The notes beneath the pieces were generated by a model that searched no databases, was not told the origin of the DNA, and saw only the letters and a list, made by a program, of their open reading frames with translations. The position numbers and the translations under genes were made by a program. Positions 2,242-10,046 of a DNA stretch of 13,864 nucleotides are shown here, in pieces. The DNA is taken from assembly GCA_013378385.1 (NCBI GenBank), contig JACAFS010000027.1:1-13864 (forward strand), in the 5' to 3' direction. Position 1 is the first letter of the stretch. Every line of letters starts with the position of its first letter. Source of the stretch: Nitrososphaerota archaeon. Lineage in GTDB: Archaea > Thermoproteota > Nitrososphaeria > Nitrososphaerales > UBA57.

Positions 2242-2978
2242 AACCAAAGATAACAATAATAATTCCATGTTATAACTCTGAAAAGTGGATAGAGCAATGC
2301 GCCACCAGTTGCCTAAAGCAAACTTATGAGAACGTGGAAGTAATAGCGGTAGACAACGAGAGTAAGGACAATACTGTCAAGATACTAAATGACATAAAGA
2401 AAGAGTATCCAGAACTAATACTGTCCAGTGCTGAAAATATATATCCAAACTGCTGGGATGAAGCGAGAGAAGAGGGCTTTCGCCTAATGACAGGAGACTA
2501 CGTTATGACGATAGGCTCTGATGATTATATCGACTTGGAGTATGTCGATAACTGTATGGAAATTATACTATCCGCTCCAGATAAAATAAAGGCACTCCAG
2601 ACGCCGATACAGGGCGTCCGACAATATGGAGACAAGTTCAGTTCTACTGGAACAATTCAACATTCATATAGTTCACGAGAGCAGTTTAAGGAACTGTGTT
2701 TAACGAAGTGTCCAGTCAATACACCTTCTGTTATCTATAATGCCGAACTCTATCACAATGGGTTATTAAATACAAAGCCAGAAAAGTATGGCGGCGCAGC
2801 AGACTATGATTTATACTGTAGTCTAATAGATAATGGTATTTTTATTTACCCTGTTCCCAAGTGGCTTGGTTTTTATTATCGATGGCACCCAGAACAAGCA
2901 ACTTGGAATGTCCACAAAGAAGAAAGAAACTACGACAGAGAAATACAGGAACATTGGAAGAAAAGATGGCAGATGTAA
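2238..2978 (+). CDS. Family 2 glycosyltransferase (GT-A fold), 246 aa
   Basis: Classic GT2 N-terminus 'KITIIIPCYNSEKWIEQCATSCLKQTYENVEVIAVDNESKDNT' and a DxD-like 'IGSDDYID'. Confidence 0.85.
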   Translation: MKPKITIIIPCYNSEKWIEQCATSCLKQTYENVEVIAVDNESKDNTVKILNDIKKEYPELILSSAENIYPNCWDEAREEGFRLMTGDYVMTIGSDDYIDLEYVDNCMEIILSAPDKIKALQTPIQGVRQYGDKFSSTGTIQHSYSSREQFKELCLTKCPVNTPSVIYNAELYHNGLLNTKPEKYGGAADYDLYCSLIDNGIFIYPVPKWLGFYYRWHPEQATWNVHKEERNYDREIQEHWKKRWQM

Positions 2979-3607
2979 ATTTACTGCATAGAATAATAGA
3001 CATTGCTTACAAGAACCGTTTGTCTCATCTTGGAAGCTATTTTTCCAGCGTTGATATTATCGACGATGTTTATAGCAAGATGAACAAAGAGGATATATTC
3101 ATTCTATCTTCAGGACACTGCGCTTTGGCTCTCTACGCTGTTGTAGAAAAATACAGAGGCATTGATGCTGAGTATTTATTTGCCACCCACGGAGGACACC
3201 CTCACCGCTGTGAAAATGACGGACTATATTGCTCCACTGGCAGCTTGGGGATGGGTATCACCGCCGCTGTCGGAAGAGCAATAGCTAAACCAGATAGGGT
3301 AGTTCATTGTCTTATCAGCGATGGAGAATGTGCCGAAGGTAGCGTCTGGGAAAGCCTGAAGTTCATCTACGAACACAATATAAAGAATATAAAGATTTAT
3401 GTAAATGTAAACGGATACGCTGCGTATGACGCAGTTGACACTTCCTATCTAATAAAAAGACTCAAAGCTTTCTTGCCAAGCATTAATATTATACATACAG
3501 ATGTCAATGCCTTTCCTTTCCTAAGAGGATTGAACGCCCATTATCACATAATGAAAGAGGAAGATTACAAATTGGCGAAGGAGGTTCTAAATGAGAAAAG
3601 AATTTAG
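2966..3607 (+). CDS. Transketolase-family ThDP enzyme, N-terminal (PP-domain) subunit, shortened to 213 aa
   Basis: 'RLSHLGSYFSSVDIIDDVY', 'ILSSGHCALALYAVVEKY' and 'HGGHPHR...CSTGSLGMGITAAVGRAIA' match the split-transketolase N subunit. So does the ThDP/Mg motif 'SDGECAEGSVWESLKFIYEHNIKNIKIYVNVNGY' (the GDG...N motif with G->S). I chose the ATG at 2966 (MADVNLLH) because a GGAAG lies upstream. The ORF-track start at 2861 would run 118 nt inside the GT2 gene. Confidence 0.8.
   Translation: MADVNLLHRIIDIAYKNRLSHLGSYFSSVDIIDDVYSKMNKEDIFILSSGHCALALYAVVEKYRGIDAEYLFATHGGHPHRCENDGLYCSTGSLGMGITAAVGRAIAKPDRVVHCLISDGECAEGSVWESLKFIYEHNIKNIKIYVNVNGYAAYDAVDTSYLIKRLKAFLPSINIIHTDVNAFPFLRGLNAHYHIMKEEDYKLAKEVLNEKRI
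3578..3584 (+). promoter_or_regulatory. Shine-Dalgarno site (AAGGAGG) for the transketolase C subunit
   Basis: A perfect AAGGAGG lies 6 nt upstream of ATG 3591, inside the 3' end of the upstream gene. Confidence 0.6.
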
Positions 3608-4067
3608 TGAAAGATTGCACAAAGAGATGGGAATAAATAAGGACATATATCTATTGACTGGCGATTTGGGATACGGACTCTGGGACAAAATTAGAATAGA
3701 TTATCCGAATCGTTTCTATAATGTAGGCTCTTCGGAACAATTGATGCTGGGAATGGCGTCTGGCTTGGCGATGGATGGAAAGATACCAGTTGTCTATTCC
3801 ATTACTCCCTTTTTACTTTACAGACCTTTCGAGACTATAAGAAATTACGTGGATCACGAGAAGCTACCAGTTAAACTGATTGGAGGAGGTAGGGATAGGG
3901 ACTATGGATACTTAGGATTTTCCCATTGGGCAGAAGAAGACAAGGAAGTTACAAAGGTGTTTAAGAATATTAAGACTATCCATCCAGAGAGTGTAGAGTC
4001 AATGAATAAGAATTTTGATTTTGTTATCGATAAGGAAACTCCTCTGTATATGAATTTGAAACGATGA
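3591..4067 (+). CDS. Transketolase-family ThDP enzyme, pyrimidine-binding (Pyr) subunit. At 158 aa it lacks the usual C-terminal domain.
   Basis: 'YLLTGDLGYG', 'YPNRFYNVGSSEQLMLGMASGLAMDGKIPVVYSITPFLLYRPFETIRNYV' and 'LPVKLIGGG' match the split-transketolase C subunit pattern (fPeRf.nvGIaEq.mvg.AaGlA..Gk.P). The ThDP-activating Glu is kept in 'SSEQ'. There is a strong SD upstream, and the gene overlaps the N subunit by 17 nt. Confidence 0.8.
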   Translation: MRKEFSERLHKEMGINKDIYLLTGDLGYGLWDKIRIDYPNRFYNVGSSEQLMLGMASGLAMDGKIPVVYSITPFLLYRPFETIRNYVDHEKLPVKLIGGGRDRDYGYLGFSHWAEEDKEVTKVFKNIKTIHPESVESMNKNFDFVIDKETPLYMNLKR

Positions 4068-4966
4068 GAATATTATTTACATCCAATAAAACATATCGTG
4101 GCTCAATAGACGGTGGTTGGTGGTATTTTTATTTACCGCTAATGGACATGGGACATGAGGTATATTTTTATGACACTGTTTCAGGGGATGATAAAACATA
4201 TTCAGAAATAATAGAGACGTTCAAACCAGATTTGATATTCTGCATCATGACTGGTGATGTAGGAATAGCTCCATTGGAGCCGTGGCAGGACATCTTGAAT
4301 GAGACTAAGACTGGCAGAACAAAAACATTCAACTGGTTCTGTGATGACACTTGGAGATATGATAATTTCTCCAAAAATGCGTGTCATTATTTTAATGTCT
4401 GCTCCACTCCTGAAAACCCAAGAGTTGCAGATTATAAGAAAGATGGATACGATAATATAATTGTTGCTAATTGGCACGCCAACTCAAAGTTTTATGAAGC
4501 AAAAGCATATGAAGATAAGAACACGGACATTTCTTTTATAGGCTATCTGACTGCAACGAGGAAATCGTTTTTCAACAGAGTTGACTTGCCAATCACTTTC
4601 CTAAGCGGAATAACTCAAGAAGAACTTTTTGCTGCCCATACTACGACTAAAATAGGCATAAACTTGTCCCACAACGACAATGACACTCAAGGCAAGACTC
4701 AAATGAAGCAGAGAATGTTCGAAGTTCCCGCTGGCGGAGGGATGCTATTGACTCAATATCACGAGGGAATCGAAGACTATTATAAAATTGACAGCGAGAT
4801 AGTTACTTTTAAAGATGCTGATGAGTTTTGCAAAAAGGCAAAGTTCCTAATGGACAATCCCAATGTCAGTAAAAATATAGCTGAGAGGGGATACAGAAGA
4901 TTTATTAGGGAACACGATTCGTCCGTTAGGTTGAACCAAGTATTGCAAGAGATTGGAAAACTGTGA
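4064..4966 (+). CDS. CgeB-like glycosyltransferase (Glyco_trans_1_2-type), 300 aa. It is the second member of this family in the window.
   Basis: 'ISFIGYLTATRKSFFNRV', 'GINLSHND...QRMFEVPAGGGMLLTQ' and 'IVTFKDADEFCKKAKFLMDNPNVSKNIAERGYRRFIREHDSSVRLNQVL' follow the CgeB C-terminal domain pattern. It starts with an ATGA overlap and ends with a GTGA overlap. Confidence 0.65.
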   Translation: MRILFTSNKTYRGSIDGGWWYFYLPLMDMGHEVYFYDTVSGDDKTYSEIIETFKPDLIFCIMTGDVGIAPLEPWQDILNETKTGRTKTFNWFCDDTWRYDNFSKNACHYFNVCSTPENPRVADYKKDGYDNIIVANWHANSKFYEAKAYEDKNTDISFIGYLTATRKSFFNRVDLPITFLSGITQEELFAAHTTTKIGINLSHNDNDTQGKTQMKQRMFEVPAGGGMLLTQYHEGIEDYYKIDSEIVTFKDADEFCKKAKFLMDNPNVSKNIAERGYRRFIREHDSSVRLNQVLQEIGKL

Positions 4967-5805
4967 ATATTCTCATTACAGGATCAAAAGGATTTATAGG
5001 CAAAGAATTGTCAAGATACTTTAGCGAAGAGCATAATGTAATCTCCACAGATAGGACAACTCTTGATCCAACTAAACGCGAAAGTGTAAAAAGCTTCTTC
5101 GACAATAACAAAATAGATGTTGTCATCCACGCCGCAGTGAAGGGCGGGAAAAGAGGGCATCAGGAAAGTATCGAAGACTTGTACGAAAATTTGCTTATGT
5201 TTGAAAACCTTAGTAATTTTTCAAATCACTATAAGGCTATGTTCAATTTTGGCTCTGGTGCAGAATTTGACAGAAGAATGGAAATAAAACTATCAATAGA
5301 AAGTGAAATAGAAAGTCGTCTTCCGTCGGACTACTATGGATTGGCTAAAAATCTTATAACTCGTAAAATAAATCACTTAGATTCCAATATCTATAATCTA
5401 AGGCTATTTGGATGCTTCGGAGAATATGAAGAACCTCAGAGACTACTAAGAGCAACATACGACAAGATAGTCAAAGGCGAAAGCCCTAATGTTCACAATG
5501 ATAAGTGGATGGACTACTTTTATGCACAGGATATCGGAAGAGTCATAGAGTATATTGTAAATAATATTGAGAAAGATATTCCCAAGGACATAAATCTGTG
5601 TTATAATGAGAAATACAGACTAAGCGACTTAGTTTATAAAATAAAAAACTTGACGGAATCCAATTGCGATGTTATAATATATAATAACCAAATTGGAAGT
5701 TTGTCTTATACGGGCGATTCTACAGAATTAGATAGCCTAAATATAGCCCTGATGGGCATTGACATTGGAGTTGAAAAGTGTCTGAAAAGTTGGAGCAAAT
5801 ACTAG
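4963..5805 (+). CDS. Extended-SDR NDP-sugar reductase or epimerase/reductase (RmlD / GDP-fucose-synthase-like), 280 aa, GTG start
   Basis: The Rossmann motif 'ILITGSKGFIGKEL' begins at residue 3. 'DRTTLDPTKRESVKSFFDNNKIDVVIHAAVKGG' resembles the RmlD/Fcl pattern 'r..lD..d...v.......pd.VihaAa.vgg'. The catalytic YxxxK is present in 'DYYGLAKN'. Confidence 0.75.
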   Translation: MNILITGSKGFIGKELSRYFSEEHNVISTDRTTLDPTKRESVKSFFDNNKIDVVIHAAVKGGKRGHQESIEDLYENLLMFENLSNFSNHYKAMFNFGSGAEFDRRMEIKLSIESEIESRLPSDYYGLAKNLITRKINHLDSNIYNLRLFGCFGEYEEPQRLLRATYDKIVKGESPNVHNDKWMDYFYAQDIGRVIEYIVNNIEKDIPKDINLCYNEKYRLSDLVYKIKNLTESNCDVIIYNNQIGSLSYTGDSTELDSLNIALMGIDIGVEKCLKSWSKY

Positions 5806-7106
5806 ACTTAGTATCTGAGTATGTTAGTGAAAAGGATGATGGATGGAAAGCTGGCGAAGATTGGGTTAGTTATTCTGGACCTCAATTTGATGATAAAGAG
5901 TACAGGGCAGCAATTGAAGTCCTACTGAGCGGCTGGTTAATCTTTGGAGAGAAGTCTAGAGAATTTGAAAAGACATTTTCGCCGCACTTAGGCAAAGCAC
6001 AGGGGTGCCTAACCAATTCGGGCTCTTCCGCCAATCTTCTTGCCGTAAGCGCTCTGCGCTCAAAGAATGGATTTAATCTCCCAGAAGGTTCAAAGATAAT
6101 TACGCCAGTTGTGTGTTTTCCTACGACAATAAATCCAATCATTCAAAATGGATTTGAACCAGTTTTCGTAGATGTGACTCTTCCTGATTTAAATTTAGAC
6201 TTAGATCAAGTAGAGGCTATACTTGAATCTGATCCAGATATCAGGGGGATAATGTTTGCTCATGTTCTTGGAAACCCTCCAGACATGGACAGATTGATGG
6301 GGTTGATTAAAAAACACGAACTCATCTTTGTTGAAGACGCTTGTGACGCTCTCGGTTCATTTTATGATGGCAGAAAGTTGGGCTCATTCGGAGATATTTC
6401 CACTTGCTCGTTCTTTCCAGCCCATCACATGACTATGGGCGAGGGTGGATTTGTAGCAACAGATAACGTTCGACTAAACAAGGCAGTTACGAGCATTAGA
6501 GACTGGGGTAGGGCTTGCTATTGTAACACTGCTAAACCTGGTAATGTAACTGGCGGGACAGCTTGTGGAAACAGGTTCAAGAATTGGTTGACTGGAATGC
6601 CAGAAGCCGTTTACGATCATCGATATGTTTTTGACGAGATAGGGTACAACCTAAAGCCACTAGATTTACAAGCAGCCATGGGGTTGAAGCAATTAGATAA
6701 ATTGCCAGATTTCGACGCCGCACGACGAAAAAACTTCTCAAGGCTGTACGAGATATTCAAACCATATGAGAAATATCTATACCTACCAGAAGCCAACGAA
6801 AAGGCAGATCCATGTTGGTTCGCCTTCCTAATGACGGTTAAAGAAGGTTCCCCGTTTAACAGAGGAAATATCGTTTCTCATTTCGAGAAAAACAAGATTC
6901 AAACTCGTTCTTATTTCGCTGGAAATATTTTAGCTCACCCTGGTTACAATCACTTAGCAGAGCCGTATGGTGACTTGGGAGATATGTTCCCAGTTGCCAA
7001 GATAGTCACGTTCAATTCATTCTTTTTAGGAACTTTCATAGGACTGACTGAAGAAAAATTAGATTACATACAAAGCGTTGCTGACTCCTTTTTCGGAGAA
7101 CTGTGA
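5778..7106 (+). CDS. rfbH: NDP-4-keto-6-deoxyhexose 3-dehydrase, RfbH/DdhC (E1) type. PMP-dependent, with a putative [2Fe-2S] site; 442 aa, GTG start.
   Basis: It is collinear with my recollection of RfbH/E1 along its whole length (LDLVSEY..., SGWLIFGEKSREFEKTF, NSGSSANLLAVSAL, CFPTTINPIIQNGFEPVFVDV, VEDACDALG, SFFPAHHMTMGEGG, IRDWGRACYC, YDHRY.F..IGYNLKP.DLQAA, LP.A.EKADPCWF.F, QTR..FAGN). His216 sits where aminotransferases have the Schiff-base Lys. The Cys pattern is C189-X57-C247-X1-C249-X13-C263. GGAG at 5767-5770 lies 7 nt before the GTG. Confidence 0.85.
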   Translation: MSEKLEQILDLVSEYVSEKDDGWKAGEDWVSYSGPQFDDKEYRAAIEVLLSGWLIFGEKSREFEKTFSPHLGKAQGCLTNSGSSANLLAVSALRSKNGFNLPEGSKIITPVVCFPTTINPIIQNGFEPVFVDVTLPDLNLDLDQVEAILESDPDIRGIMFAHVLGNPPDMDRLMGLIKKHELIFVEDACDALGSFYDGRKLGSFGDISTCSFFPAHHMTMGEGGFVATDNVRLNKAVTSIRDWGRACYCNTAKPGNVTGGTACGNRFKNWLTGMPEAVYDHRYVFDEIGYNLKPLDLQAAMGLKQLDKLPDFDAARRKNFSRLYEIFKPYEKYLYLPEANEKADPCWFAFLMTVKEGSPFNRGNIVSHFEKNKIQTRSYFAGNILAHPGYNHLAEPYGDLGDMFPVAKIVTFNSFFLGTFIGLTEEKLDYIQSVADSFFGEL

Positions 7107-8053
7107 TGAAAGTGGTATATGTAACGGGATGTCTTGGATTCATAGGCTCATACGTTACTAGGAAGTGTCTCGAACGTGGTTGGATGGTGTATGGCATCGA
7201 TAAATGTACCTACGCCGCCAACAGGAATCTCATAGAAGAGTTTTCGGAATACTCAAACTTCACCTTCTTAGAAGAAGATATCAAAGACTTGAAGCATCTT
7301 TATGACTGCGACTACGTTATAAACACCGCTGCCGAGTCTCATGTTGGAAATAGTATCATAGATAGCGGGGAATTCATCAGTAGTAATATTGTGGGAGTTA
7401 GAAATCTTCTGGACTTGATTCGCAACAGACCAGAGAACTGCAACCGACGCCCCATCCTATTCCACTTCAGCACCGATGAGGTTTATGGCGACATTGAGGA
7501 CGGAGAGCATACTGAGGAACACTTGCTCCACCCAAGCAATCCATACTCTGCGTCTAAAGCGTCCGCAGACATGCTCGTTTTGGCATGGGCGAGAACATAT
7601 AACGTAGAGTACATTATTTTACGCCCCACAAACAATTATGGCATTGGACAATATCCAGAAAAACTCATCCCTCTCTCGGTAAAGAACATGATTAGAGGAA
7701 GGAAGGTTAGATTACACAATGGCGGTACGCCTATTCGTAACTGGCTTCACGCCGATGATACGGCAGAATCAGTAATGACAATCATCGATTCTGGCAATGT
7801 TAATGAGATATACAATGTTGCAGGAGGATTCGAACAAACGAATGCAGAGACAGTCAAAAAGATAGTGTCCGTTCATCACAACACTGATGATTGGAAACAA
7901 TATGTAGATTTCTCATATTCCAGACAAGGGCAAGATGTACGTTACGCCCTAAATGACGAAAAGTTGAGAGCCCTCGGCTGGAGCCCTAAAAAGGTTTTTG
8001 ATGAAGAGATAAAATCAATCGTTGAATACTACAAGAACAATTTTATTTGGTAA
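7106..8053 (+). CDS. rfbB: NDP-glucose 4,6-dehydratase, dTDP-glucose 4,6-dehydratase (RmlB/RfbB) type
   Basis: 'VYVTGCLGFIGSYV', 'INTAAESHV', 'FHFSTDEVYGD', 'PYSASKASADMLV', 'RPTNNYGIGQYPEKLIPL' and 'GGTPIRNWLHADDTAESV' match the RmlB signature blocks (STDEVYG, YSASKA, NNYGP.Q.PEKLIP, G.G...R.WL.V.DH). GGAGA at 7095-7099 favours ATG 7106 (TGATG junction). GTG 7103 is an alternative start. Confidence 0.88.
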   Translation: MKVVYVTGCLGFIGSYVTRKCLERGWMVYGIDKCTYAANRNLIEEFSEYSNFTFLEEDIKDLKHLYDCDYVINTAAESHVGNSIIDSGEFISSNIVGVRNLLDLIRNRPENCNRRPILFHFSTDEVYGDIEDGEHTEEHLLHPSNPYSASKASADMLVLAWARTYNVEYIILRPTNNYGIGQYPEKLIPLSVKNMIRGRKVRLHNGGTPIRNWLHADDTAESVMTIIDSGNVNEIYNVAGGFEQTNAETVKKIVSVHHNTDDWKQYVDFSYSRQGQDVRYALNDEKLRALGWSPKKVFDEEIKSIVEYYKNNFIW

Positions 8054-8925
8054 TGCTTATGTGGTACAAAGGTTTAAAAAGAAAAATAATAGACATTCCT
8101 TTATCGGTAGACTCTCCTCCTTGGCTTTCATCAACCCCATTACCAGAGAATCAATTGGCAGATCTTGGAAGAAGAGGAGATTTTGTTAATAAGTTTGAAG
8201 ATTATCAAATAGATAATAATCTTTCAGAATTGGTTAGCGGCAAGAGAATAGCCTATGTGTGTCCGTCTCCTCACTTGAGAGGGATGAAAATGGGCGAATA
8301 CATTGATTCGTTTGATTTAGTAGTTCGTGTTAACCAAGCTTTCCATATGCAAGAAGAGGATTGGGAAGATTATGGAAAAAGAACAGATATTTTAATGAAT
8401 TGCCTGAATTGTAATAAAATTGCAGCACTTGAAAAAGATATGGATTTCGCAAGAGACATGAAGTTTATTGTTTGTCCTATGGTTTCTATGTGGGATATAC
8501 AGAGAGTAGATGACTTTCTTGATAAAATCGGCGTACCTTGGCATAATGTAAGCGATGGATATCTATTTAAGATATTCAAAGAAGTGGGAACAACTTGTAA
8601 TACTGGACTGACTGGCGTTATGACGCTTCTGAACTATGACATAAAAGAGCTATATCTAACTGGAATGACTTTCTTCAATATGAACAAGTTTGGGCAAATA
8701 TATTATGGCAAATACCATAATGAAGCAGTCGCTAATAATAATTTTAGAGAAGATTCTGGAAAAGTTCCTAACTTTGCTGATTTGAGAATCGACATACACC
8801 AGCAACAGCCACAGATTAATTATTTCCACAAGATGGTGTATTTCCACTATGGAAAGAAGTTGACTTTAGATGAATATCTTACTAAAAACTTTGACTCCAC
8901 TATACAGAAGGTTAAAAATAAATGA
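8053..8925 (+). CDS. Sialyltransferase-like transferase with GT29-type sialyl-motif L/S/III-like blocks. The likely donor is a CMP-activated ulosonic acid.
   Basis: 'KRIAYVCPSPHLRGMKMGEYIDSFDLVVRVNQAF....EDYGKRTDIL' parallels sialyl motif L (C.vVGN...L.....G..ID..D.V.R.N.AP......DVG.KTT). 'CNTGLTGVMTLLNYDIKELYLTGM' parallels motif S (PSTG......A...CD.V.vYGF). 'IYYGKYH' parallels motif III (HYY[DE]). I chose ATG 8053 (TAATG junction). TTG 8047 and ATG 8059 are alternatives. That it is a CDS is secure; the function is a motif-level guess. Confidence 0.5.
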   Translation: MLMWYKGLKRKIIDIPLSVDSPPWLSSTPLPENQLADLGRRGDFVNKFEDYQIDNNLSELVSGKRIAYVCPSPHLRGMKMGEYIDSFDLVVRVNQAFHMQEEDWEDYGKRTDILMNCLNCNKIAALEKDMDFARDMKFIVCPMVSMWDIQRVDDFLDKIGVPWHNVSDGYLFKIFKEVGTTCNTGLTGVMTLLNYDIKELYLTGMTFFNMNKFGQIYYGKYHNEAVANNNFREDSGKVPNFADLRIDIHQQQPQINYFHKMVYFHYGKKLTLDEYLTKNFDSTIQKVKNK

Positions 8926-10046
8926 AACTTGTAGCAATGATACCTGCTCGACTGGGCAGCAAAAGAATACCCAAGAAAAACATAAGACTGCTCAATGGCA
9001 TTCCTCTTATTTCTTACATTATTCGTGCCGTAAAAGAAAGCCAATGTTTTGATGAGATATATGTAAACACAGAGTCAGATATAATCGGAGAGATAGCCTT
9101 GTCCGAGGGTGTCAAGTTTTACAAAAGACCGTCTCACTTATCAACAGACTCCGCAACAAACGATGATTTTTCTTTAGACTTTATAAAGAATGTTGAGTGC
9201 GACGTCATGGTACAGGTTCTAGCCACTTCTCCTTTTCTATCTGTAAAAGATATCAAATCTTTTGCAAAGATGGCTATTGACGGAGATTACGACACTTTAG
9301 TTTCTCTGAACAAGCAACAGATTGAATGCGTCTACGACGGCAATCCTATCAATTTTGATAAGAAGAAGCCTTCGCCACCGTCACAGCACGTAACGCCAGT
9401 CGGAGCATATGCCTGTGGTTTGATGGCTTGGAGAAGCGAGAATTACAAAGACAATATGGAGAAGTATGGCTGCGGATATCACGGAGGCGACGGTAAAGTG
9501 GGATATTATACCCTAACTGGGCACTCTACTATTGACGTTGACGAGGAAGAAGACTTCCAGTTGGCAGAATTAGTCGCAAGACACTTGGCGTCCAGACAGA
9601 ATTATGAACCAAGGTATTACGGAGACGGACTGCATGTAGAAGTTGACGTGCCGAGTATATTAGCCAAGGATGGAGTAAACACTAATGATTTACATTCAGC
9701 GAATAGTGAAACCCCAGTAAGTGTGAAAGAGATTATAAGCAGTTTTGACGACTCAGTTTCTTGGAGCAAGAGAGTAGTTAATACTGAGAATAACAGCGCC
9801 ACATTGATACATCAGATGCCAGGAGAAGGCAATCGAGCGCACTATCATCCAGAATGGAATGAGTGGTGGTACATCATTGACGGACAATGGGAATGGAACA
9901 TCGAGGGCGAAAAAATAATAGTTAAAAAAGATGATATAGTTTTTATACCAAAAAATAGAGTACATCACATTACCGCTGTCGGAGACAAGCCTGCCATAAG
10001 GCTGGCGGTTAGCCGAGAAGATGTAGAACATGTGTATCCCGAGTAA
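8922..10046 (+). CDS. Fusion protein: an N-terminal acylneuraminate/ulosonate cytidylyltransferase domain (NeuA/CTP_transf_3 type, about 8922-9590) and a C-terminal cupin domain (about 9705-10043)
   Basis: The N-terminus 'KLVAMIPARLGSKRIPKKNIRLLNGIPLISYIIRAVKES.CFDEIYVNTESD', 'KRPSHLSTDSAT' and 'HSTIDVDEEEDFQLAELV' form the NeuA-family signature. The C-terminus has two-motif cupin signatures 'GEGNRAHYHPEWNEWWYIIDG' and 'DDIVFIPKNRVHHI'. It starts with an ATGA overlap. Confidence 0.8.
   Translation: MKLVAMIPARLGSKRIPKKNIRLLNGIPLISYIIRAVKESQCFDEIYVNTESDIIGEIALSEGVKFYKRPSHLSTDSATNDDFSLDFIKNVECDVMVQVLATSPFLSVKDIKSFAKMAIDGDYDTLVSLNKQQIECVYDGNPINFDKKKPSPPSQHVTPVGAYACGLMAWRSENYKDNMEKYGCGYHGGDGKVGYYTLTGHSTIDVDEEEDFQLAELVARHLASRQNYEPRYYGDGLHVEVDVPSILAKDGVNTNDLHSANSETPVSVKEIISSFDDSVSWSKRVVNTENNSATLIHQMPGEGNRAHYHPEWNEWWYIIDGQWEWNIEGEKIIVKKDDIVFIPKNRVHHITAVGDKPAIRLAVSREDVEHVYPE

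Follow-up and report, generated by a model that had tools for sequence, protein, structure and literature searches.

What does a two-subunit thiamin diphosphate (ThDP) enzyme do in the middle of a set of deoxysugar genes? The question is raised by the stretch of DNA analysed here at its full length of 13,864 bases (contig JACAFS010000027.1; hereafter the window). In it, genes for a diphosphate-binding (PP) and a pyrimidine-binding (Pyr) ThDP subunit accompany genes for a short member of the extended short-chain dehydrogenase/reductases (SDR), an E1/RfbH-type 3-dehydrase (E1) and an RmlB-type nucleoside diphosphate (NDP)-hexose 4,6-dehydratase. The answer we favour, while giving it no better than an even chance of being right, follows the logic of yersiniose biosynthesis: the ThDP pair would attach a carbon branch to an NDP-4-keto-3,6-dideoxyhexose, and the branched sugar would then be reduced. 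An earlier, sequence-only reading of the window had called four gene products (ThDP pair, SDR, E1 and RmlB-type enzyme), and we find each of them, at the coordinates given there, on the + strand:

2966-3607, + strand: PP subunit of the ThDP enzyme, 213 amino acids (aa); an independent gene call gives the same start
3591-4067, + strand: Pyr subunit of the ThDP enzyme, 158 aa; Pfam Transket_pyr
4963-5805, + strand: short extended-SDR reductase, 280 aa; Pfam Epimerase and RmlD_sub_bind
5778-7106, + strand: E1/RfbH-type 3-dehydrase, 442 aa; NCBIfam NF011936
7106-8053, + strand: RmlB-type NDP-hexose 4,6-dehydratase, 315 aa; TIGR01181 is its best family, and an in-frame GTG lies at 7103

That reading treated 2966-8053 as a single block. 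The genes stand but the contiguity does not, a glycosyltransferase gene (4064-4966) being placed between Pyr and SDR. It also left out three features that shape the present account, namely the viral origin of the DNA, the small size of a ThDP pair that has no C-terminal domain, and the glycan island in which the cassette is embedded.

The two ThDP subunits are related to transketolases. The PP subunit gives weak Pfam matches to Transketolase_N, XFP_N and DXP_synthase_N, and among solved structures the split transketolase 6YAK comes nearest in sequence (E 1e-12). The Pyr subunit is nearest to the split-transketolase β chain 6YAJ (341 aa; E 3e-14), followed by DXS. Taken together, their relatives by sequence are the split-chain transketolase of Carboxydothermus, human-type transketolase and DXS, and identity to true transketolases is 20-25%. 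In a Foldseek search the AF2 model of the PP subunit (pLDDT 90.8) retrieved the 6YAK α chain first (TM 0.85), then human transketolase and the natural-product transketolase AniP; E1-α chains of pyruvate and branched-chain dehydrogenases reached a TM of at most 0.57. The top PDB matches of the PP sequence, to designer pentatricopeptide proteins, were set aside as repeat artefacts with no single stretch above threshold.

The cofactor-binding residues are retained. The PP motif S-D-G-E-x-A-E-G...N-G (in the window S-D-G-E-C-A-E-G...N-V-N-G-Y) is invariant across the family, as are His21, His51, His78, His80, His192 and His194, and the Pyr subunit carries the invariant motifs V-G-S-S-E-Q-L, with the cofactor-activating Glu, and G-x-S-H-W-A-E-E-D. 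Both the ThDP/Mg motif of the PP domain and the activating Glu of the Pyr domain that mark a transketolase are therefore present. The departures lie in size and domain content. Transketolases have a PP domain of ~270-320 aa, against 213 aa here, and the Pyr subunit, which covers positions 5-168 of the 174 in Transket_pyr, stops at residue 158, where the C-terminal domain of a transketolase would start; that domain is absent. Transketolases run to roughly 620-660 aa, the two subunits together to 371 aa, and the pair stays below the curated models (NF004559: PP 81.9 bits, Pyr 42.8 bits, cut-off 488). Two other kinds of ThDP enzyme fit no better. YerE-like enzymes are single chains of ~560-600 aa in the order Pyr-TH3-PP, whereas the pair consists of two short chains, PP then Pyr, and acetolactate synthase models match only ~35 residues around its ThDP motif. 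The pair also falls outside the α-ketoacid dehydrogenase-2 enzymes, with 23 bits to the PDH E1-α model and no C-terminal domain. Going by sequence and modelled fold, we class the pair as a miniature transketolase-like PP/Pyr enzyme that is set apart by size and domain content; sequence and fold both agree with the transketolase-like assignment of the sequence-only reading. The family is large: after clustering at 90%, the PP subunit has more than 4,000 relatives, most of them 65-97% identical. The greater part come from marine metagenomes, those of Tara among them. The Pyr gene adjoins the PP gene in all 84 viral and all 31 cellular loci.

The window itself is viral. A relative of the PP subunit is encoded on 321 viral contigs in IMG/VR, some of them 170-269 kb long. 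On contigs of 50-127 kb the cassette sits 3' of genes for adenylosuccinate synthase, a ClpP-type protein, a PIN-PhoH protein and a PD-(D/E)XK nuclease, the last three of which PHROGs assigns as head maturation protease, phage PhoH and exonuclease, respectively. Among cultured phages (INPHARED), blastn of the block gave no match, and a protein search with the PP subunit returned only ordinary transketolases at ~30-37% identity and no close cultured phage. In 6.6 kb more of a 64 kb IMG/VR contig, PHROGs matched neither a terminase nor a capsid protein, only a prohead protease and a phosphoesterase. Given the phage-type neighbours, the IMG/VR contigs and the lack of a close cultured phage, the carrier is an uncultured lineage of large-genome marine phages, and the cassette is the conserved core of a phage glycan island. 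Literature searches for this cassette in phages returned nothing specific. A complete cassette of the window type also lies on two contigs of 9-13 kb from a 'Maricaulis sp.' metagenome-assembled genome (MAG) (L016 and L017, our numbers for related loci; NZMJ01000093.1 and NZMJ01000023.1). Their proteins are 54-87% identical to those of the window (core enzymes 80-87%, SDR 54%), and the two are probably phage contigs that a binning error placed in a bacterial MAG.

The enzyme proposed to act immediately before the ThDP pair is the E1 homologue. The NCBIfam RfbH equivalog NF011936 scores the window E1 at 459.3 bits, above its curated cut-off of 423, and the protein aligns full-length with the Yersinia E1 structure 3BCX (340 bits). 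His216-His217 occupies the position of the Schiff-base Lys in DegT aminotransferases (F-F-P-A-H216-H217-M, compared with F-Y-P-A-H220-H in E1), the exact Lys position being marked by the H220K mutant structure 3BB8. An aminotransferase is ruled out by this His in place of Lys. Canonical E1 enzymes ligate their [2Fe-2S] cluster through C-X57-C-X1-C-X7-C. In the window the arrangement is C189-X57-C247-X1-C249-X13-C263, in which each of the four cysteines lines up with an E1 ligand and the one difference is a longer last spacer (X13 vs X7), and the catalytic His and the four Cys are invariant in 11 related phage cassettes. By these residues the protein is of the pyridoxamine phosphate- and [2Fe-2S]-dependent 3-dehydrase type, so that the sequence-only call of a dehydrase, and not of a plain aminotransferase, is borne out. 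The window and the flanks of related loci contain no gene resembling a dedicated E3 (AscD/DdhD) flavin/Fe-S reductase.

In ~20 viral loci (e.g. L125:7921-9063, L092, L116 and L129) the Fe-S enzyme is replaced by a 380-aa protein of the E1 clade, which again adjoins the ThDP pair and the gene for the RmlB-type enzyme. Its catalytic His is still in place, but the cysteine segment is gone, together with the equivalent of C189. A ColD identity is ruled out by its scores (225 bits to E1 vs 141 to ColD). This variant may be a reductase-independent 3-dehydrase derived from E1 and, with no E3 at hand, it turns the powering of 3-deoxygenation in the phage into a testable question.

The 4,6-dehydratase scores 300.9 bits with TIGR01181, below the cut-off of 365.1, yet this is by far its best family (CDP-glucose 4,6-dehydratase 73 bits, Gmd 53 bits). 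Its best PDB matches are the dTDP-glucose 4,6-dehydratases 2HUN and 6BI4 (E 1e-66 to 1e-63), the alignment with 2HUN being full-length. The motifs S-T-D-E-V-Y-G-D and Y-S-A-S-K supply the catalytic Thr-Asp-Glu and Tyr-x3-Lys, and we accordingly retain the earlier call of an RmlB-type NDP-hexose 4,6-dehydratase, with the qualification that its nucleotide specificity is not readable from the sequence. The enzyme also matches 6VLO (E 1e-42), which we take to be a mimivirus enzyme acting on UDP-glucose; membership of the RmlB family thus does not fix the nucleotide. The short SDR has the motifs G-S-K-G-F-I-G (G-x-x-G-x-x-G) and Y-Y-G-L-A-K (Y-x3-K) and weak PDB matches to RmlD and GDP-fucose synthase, and is the fastest-evolving gene of the cassette (median identity 33%). 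We propose that it reduces the side-chain ketone in the manner of YerF; in a rival reading, taken up below, it would reduce the C-4 ketone of the ring.

Whether these genes belong together can be judged from the 61 viral loci in which the PP gene is flanked by 7 kb or more of sequence on either side; linkage in them was counted by motif. Every one of them (61/61) has, no more than 9 kb from the pair, a His-type 3-dehydrase, recognised as a DegT protein whose catalytic position is occupied by His. An SDR of 235-300 aa follows within 2.6 kb 3' of the Pyr gene in 58, an SDR bearing the T-D-E motif of dehydratases is found no more than 9 kb from the pair in 55, and 52 loci have all three. The genes occur in two orders, GT2-PP-Pyr-(GT)-SDR-E1-RmlB, as in the window (GT, glycosyltransferase; GT2, glycosyltransferase family 2), and E1-RmlB-PP-Pyr-SDR. 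A set of functions that is kept through rearrangement and through a change of dehydrase subtype is expected of a single pathway, and the counts argue strongly that the ThDP pair and the deoxysugar genes form one pathway in the viral lineage. The tie between the pair and 3-deoxygenation, which the sequence-only reading had drawn from one locus, is found here in 61 of 61 loci, two gene orders and two dehydrase subtypes. Within the cassette it is the ThDP pair, and not E1 or RmlB, that the SDR gene accompanies, as would fit a couple like YerE and YerF.

We envisage the branching pathway as follows. An NDP-hexose of the host would be taken up by the pathway, a source that we infer because no nucleotidylyltransferase is encoded. 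The RmlB-type enzyme, to judge by its catalytic motifs, would convert it to NDP-4-keto-6-deoxyhexose, from which the E1-type enzyme, with His for Lys and the Fe-S cysteines, would strip the 3-hydroxyl to yield NDP-4-keto-3,6-dideoxyhexose. Electrons for this step would presumably come from ferredoxin/flavodoxin systems of the host, on which SpnQ has been reported to draw. The PP/Pyr heteromer with its ThDP would then add an activated acyl unit at the C-4 ketone, leaving a tertiary-alcohol branch. The unit would most likely have two carbons and derive from pyruvate, hydroxypyruvate or a ketose; the more specific prediction in the sequence-only reading of a dihydroxyethyl rather than a hydroxyethyl branch is dropped here, as it is not derivable from sequence. 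The short SDR would reduce the side-chain ketone, as YerF does. Finally, neighbouring glycosyltransferases would install the sugar, probably on a cytoplasmic acceptor such as virion proteins. Such an acceptor is plausible because the Pfam annotations of the window and related loci include no flippase, polymerase or initiating phosphoglycosyl transferase and because Maf/MptE-like proteins are present. More tentatively still, and with somewhat more doubt than confidence, we extend this pathway to a wider proposal. It holds that the pair represents a new class of minimal two-subunit transketolase-like carboligases in globally distributed large marine phages, which branch NDP-4-keto-3,6-dideoxyhexoses and so place a new branched deoxysugar on the virion or another cytoplasmic target; that related chemistry exists in Patescibacteria and other uncultured bacteria; and that viral 'transketolase' auxiliary metabolic genes (AMGs) are in part misread glycan genes.

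Several points weigh against the branching pathway. The function of the ThDP family, its donor and its acceptor are all predictions. For the short SDR a simple C-4 ketoreductase is an equally good reading; paratose and abequose synthases are enzymes of this kind and of similar size. The E1 homologue belongs to the CDP-type RfbH family and the dehydratase is of the dTDP type, and the nucleotide that they would share is not settled by sequence. Neither a nucleotidylyltransferase nor an E3 was found in the islands examined; the sequence-only reading had reported the absence of a sugar-1-phosphate nucleotidylyltransferase and an E3 from the window, and the same holds for ~10 kb on either side in related loci.

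Cellular relatives of the pair add two further points of this kind. PP/Pyr pairs at 37-55% identity occur in GTDB genomes of Patescibacteria, Omnitrophota, Gammaproteobacteria, Actinomarina, Flavobacteriaceae and others, some on contigs of 0.3-1.1 Mb. They are always found among nucleotide-sugar genes, and by its gene neighbours the PP/Pyr pair is a general, if still putative, nucleotide-sugar tailoring enzyme. A recurrent module consists of an extended SDR, an S-adenosylmethionine (SAM) methyltransferase, PP, Pyr and a GT2 (L026, L029, L030, L034, L040-L042, L052 and others). Its SDR has the motif S-S-S-E-Y-G and is weakly LegB/RmlB-like, and its GT2 resembles the polyprenyl-phosphate glycosyltransferases PgfS and ArnC. 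Such a composition points to a pathway for a modified, lipid-linked sugar in which the same mini ThDP enzyme is employed. GT-C-like membrane proteins are often encoded close to the five-gene module. A DegT-family (E1-like) protein is near the cellular pair in few loci only (L020, L028, L034, L045 and L054), some of them RfbH-like. Most cellular pairs thus occur without E1, and the pair is not intrinsically tied to 3-deoxy substrates. The second point comes from the gammaproteobacterial MAG locus L034, which combines a strong RfbH (590 bits) and the pair with an acetolactate-synthase-like ThDP protein of the YerE class (L034:1738-3543, minus strand; 601 aa; 359 bits, below the cut-off), ~5 kb from both. 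The presence of ThDP enzymes of two superfamilies in one locus cautions against taking the pair for a simple YerE substitute, and in L034 it may do something other than the YerE step.

These observations lend themselves to an explanation that we consider unlikely but take seriously, in which the phage makes an ordinary unbranched 3,6-dideoxyhexose. The SDR would then be the C-4 ketoreductase and the ThDP pair would serve another step of the island, for instance by making a keto-acid- or aldehyde-derived substituent or by modifying another sugar handled by the adjacent GT2. An RmlB-type enzyme, an E1-type enzyme and an SDR of ~280 aa alone make up a complete route from NDP-hexose to 3,6-dideoxyhexose, and the cultured cyanophage S-H68 has an RmlB-type enzyme, an E1-type enzyme and SDRs without the pair. 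The cellular pairs, mostly without E1 and adjoining a GT2, and the separate YerE-class enzyme in L034 point the same way. The linkage data do not: in both gene orders the position of the SDR is tied to the Pyr gene (58/61) and not to E1 or RmlB, and the company of a 3-dehydrase in 61 of 61 viral loci, despite the change of subtype, would be unexpected if the pair performed an unrelated step.

Instead, the action of the pair on a 4-keto sugar might precede 3-deoxygenation or be unconnected with it. The branch could then be placed at C-3 or C-4 of NDP-4-keto-6-deoxyhexose or on some other keto-sugar, with E1 as an extra tailoring enzyme of the viral lineage. The cellular modules, with their Gmd/LegB-like SDR (S-S-S-E-Y-G) and methyltransferase and usually no E1, could be read in this way, and α-ketoacid-dehydrogenase-type enzymes are known to branch C-3 or C-4 of various keto-sugars (PMC12247030). 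In the viral loci, however, a 3-dehydrase stands beside the pair in all 61 that could be evaluated. Moreover, E1-type enzymes require a free 4-keto group and a C-3 hydroxyl, and the former would be gone if C-4 were branched beforehand. We regard this order of events as improbable. A role as a pentose-phosphate transketolase AMG that redirects host carbon flux and is unrelated to the sugar genes, as the JGI annotation of family members ('transketolase') and the interpretation of viral tkt in marine virome studies (PMC4053976) would imply, is hardly credible for a pair of 371 aa with no C-terminal domain, scores of 82 and 43 bits against a cut-off of 488 and 20-25% identity to true transketolases, and one that sits among nucleotide-sugar genes and is inherited together with them in phages and bacteria alike. 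A SpnQ-like dTDP-2,6-dideoxy route was also considered and is unsupported, no 2,3-dehydratase or 3-ketoreductase being recognised among the annotated genes of the window or the neighbours in related loci.

Branching of the 4-keto-3,6-dideoxyhexose thus remains our preferred function for a cassette that forms part of a larger island. The window carries 16 genes, all on the + strand and densely packed or overlapping, and is spanned almost exactly by a metagenome contig (ENA ERZ27248688 k141_150584; 14,049 bp). Around and between the cassette genes lie the following:

10-369, + strand: glycosyltransferase fragment, upstream glycan island
497-1342, + strand: 281-aa protein without assigned function, upstream glycan island
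1339-2241, + strand: Glyco_trans_1_2 glycosyltransferase, upstream glycan island
2238-2978, + strand: GT2-family glycosyltransferase, 246 aa; Pfam Glycos_transf_2, 81.6 bits
4064-4966, + strand: Glyco_trans_1_2 glycosyltransferase, 300 aa; Pfam PF13524, 76 bits
8047-13852, + strand: downstream variable module of the same island, from a GT29-like protein onward
8922-10046, + strand: CMP-type cytidylyltransferase-cupin fusion, in a module separate from the cassette

The upstream genes (10-2241) are also kept 5' of the cassette in viral loci of the window type. A GT2 gene precedes PP in 24 of 83 viral loci, each with the window-type arrangement. The glycosyltransferase between Pyr and SDR is outside the conserved core: it has the same place only in some loci (L010-L012, L016 and L017) and lies elsewhere in others. 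Genes overlap by 13 nt (GT2/PP), 17 nt (PP/Pyr), 28 nt (SDR/E1) and 1 nt (E1/RmlB), and several cassette genes start with GTG or TTG; overlaps and start codons are consistent with translational coupling in a compact phage operon. In L009, the locus most closely related to the window (91% identity in the PP subunit), and in L015 an extra 316-aa open reading frame without NCBIfam match separates SDR from E1 (L009:12000-12950). With insertions at the Pyr-SDR junction in the window and at the SDR-E1 junction in L009 and L015, the junctions flanking the SDR tolerate insertions.

The downstream module further encodes an MptE/Maf-like protein, a FabG-like SDR, a class III aminotransferase and an AroB-related putative sugar-phosphate cyclase (TIGR04425, 406 vs 400 bits). 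Cyclase, transaminase and CMP-transferase together suggest a CMP-activated amino-carbocycle or an unusual ulosonic acid derivative as the product. The module is present in only 5-8 of the 84 viral loci; elsewhere its place is taken by NeuB/CMP-transferase or formyltransferase modules. A B12-binding radical-SAM protein of ~580 aa is encoded ~5 kb 3' of the cassette in 12 viral loci (e.g. L098:16887-18623), for which C-methylation or another radical tailoring reaction is a possible role in the island.

ThDP enzymes that accept ketones and give tertiary alcohols are actively sought as biocatalysts, and the present family enlarges the pool of candidates by thousands of small proteins with two domains. 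From the cassette one would further predict that abundant ocean viruses make a branched dideoxysugar not yet described. Glycan machinery is known from giant viruses and from glycosylated mycobacteriophages, to which the phage cassette would be a bacterial-virus counterpart. Ocean virome work reads viral tkt as a sign of pentose-phosphate reprogramming (PMC4053976). For the mini ThDP family this is probably wrong, given its size, model scores and context, a statement that concerns this family and not virome tkt reads at large. If the wider proposal is true, some of the viral 'transketolase' AMGs in ocean viromes are glycan genes that have been misread.

How does the cassette compare with systems in which keto-sugars are known or thought to be branched? 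YerE transfers a pyruvate-derived acetyl unit to CDP-4-keto-3,6-dideoxyglucose and YerF then reduces the product, and related enzymes add longer branches (PMC9306805). A 2025 review links three ThDP superfamilies to keto-sugar branching: YerE-like decarboxylases in lipopolysaccharide (LPS) sugars; two-subunit α-ketoacid-dehydrogenase-2 enzymes in actinomycete natural products, of which KbDH has been tested in vitro; and split-gene transketolases, which are proposed for miharamycin and amipurimycin branching and have 13 further candidates, all from Streptomyces and none tested (PMC12247030). The sequence-only reading had put a transketolase in the place of YerE. The idea is not new, split transketolases having been proposed already and two-subunit enzymes of the α-ketoacid-dehydrogenase type being established in this role (PMC12247030).

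The yersiniose A pathway (DdhA-D with YerE/YerF; compare ErwE and MygE) resembles the cassette in its order of chemistry, in which a 4,6-dehydratase and then an E1-type enzyme lead to an NDP-4-keto-3,6-dideoxyhexose, in the position of a ThDP enzyme gene beside a reductase gene, and in a product that goes into a surface glycan. It differs in that the YerE class consists of single-chain, acetolactate-synthase-like decarboxylases whereas the cassette enzyme is a two-subunit PP/Pyr enzyme of the transketolase type. The cassette also has an RmlB-type rather than a DdhB-type dehydratase, encodes no DdhA or E3, and is carried by a phage. The α-ketoacid dehydrogenase-2 enzymes of the aldgamycin, kibdelomycin (KbDH-α/β), paulomycin and avilamycin pathways are heteromeric ThDP enzymes like the pair, and equip NDP-keto-sugars with a C2 branch, derived from pyruvate, at C-3 or C-4, often with ketoreduction as the next step. 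They have the E1-α/β fold, a C-terminal domain on the β subunit and an actinomycete origin, whereas the window PP subunit is modelled with a transketolase fold.

The next comparison is with the split transketolases. Those of the miharamycin and amipurimycin pathways, which we compare by their description in the review, belong to the transketolase superfamily, are divided into two polypeptides, PP then Pyr, and would, according to the proposal, pass an activated two-carbon unit on to a keto-sugar, as the window pair may do. Ordinary split types (6YAK/6YAJ) keep the C-terminal domain, whereas the window pair (213 + 158 aa) has a shortened PP subunit and no such domain, and the Streptomyces enzymes belong to secondary metabolism and not to phage or LPS-like glycans. 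As far as that description allows, size, domain content, taxonomic range and genomic context all separate the ThDP family from the Streptomyces candidates. The Carboxydothermus hydrogenoformans split transketolase (6YAK/6YAJ) is the closest solved structure and shares the PP-then-Pyr split and the ThDP and Glu motifs. It is a genuine pentose-phosphate transketolase with chains of 309 + 341 aa and a C-terminal domain, is ~23% identical to the pair, and has a Ser motif for the substrate phosphate, D-A-D-L-S-K-S-T, where the window pair has T-G-D-L-G-Y-G-L-W.

Among phages, the Kyanoviridae cyanomyophages (e.g. Synechococcus phages S-H68 and S-B05) have, like the window, many glycosyltransferases together with an RmlB-type dehydratase and an Fe-S E1, the latter 40% identical to the window E1. 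In S-H68 the diagnostic motifs are S-T-D-E-V-F-G and Y-S-A-S-K in the dehydratase and P-A-H-H, D-N-C-D and C-Y-C...C in E1. The pairing of RmlB-type and E1-type enzymes, described as non-canonical in the sequence-only reading, is therefore unusual with respect to the enterobacterial paradigm only and has a precedent in cultured phages. The Kyanoviridae, a different, cultured lineage, lack the ThDP pair and have a small cytidylyltransferase and a 3,5-epimerase in their islands. Measured against all of these systems, the chemistry that we propose is of a known kind, the ThDP-dependent branching of a dideoxy-keto-sugar; what would be new is the miniature transketolase-like enzyme that carries it out and the abundant viral carrier in which it is found.

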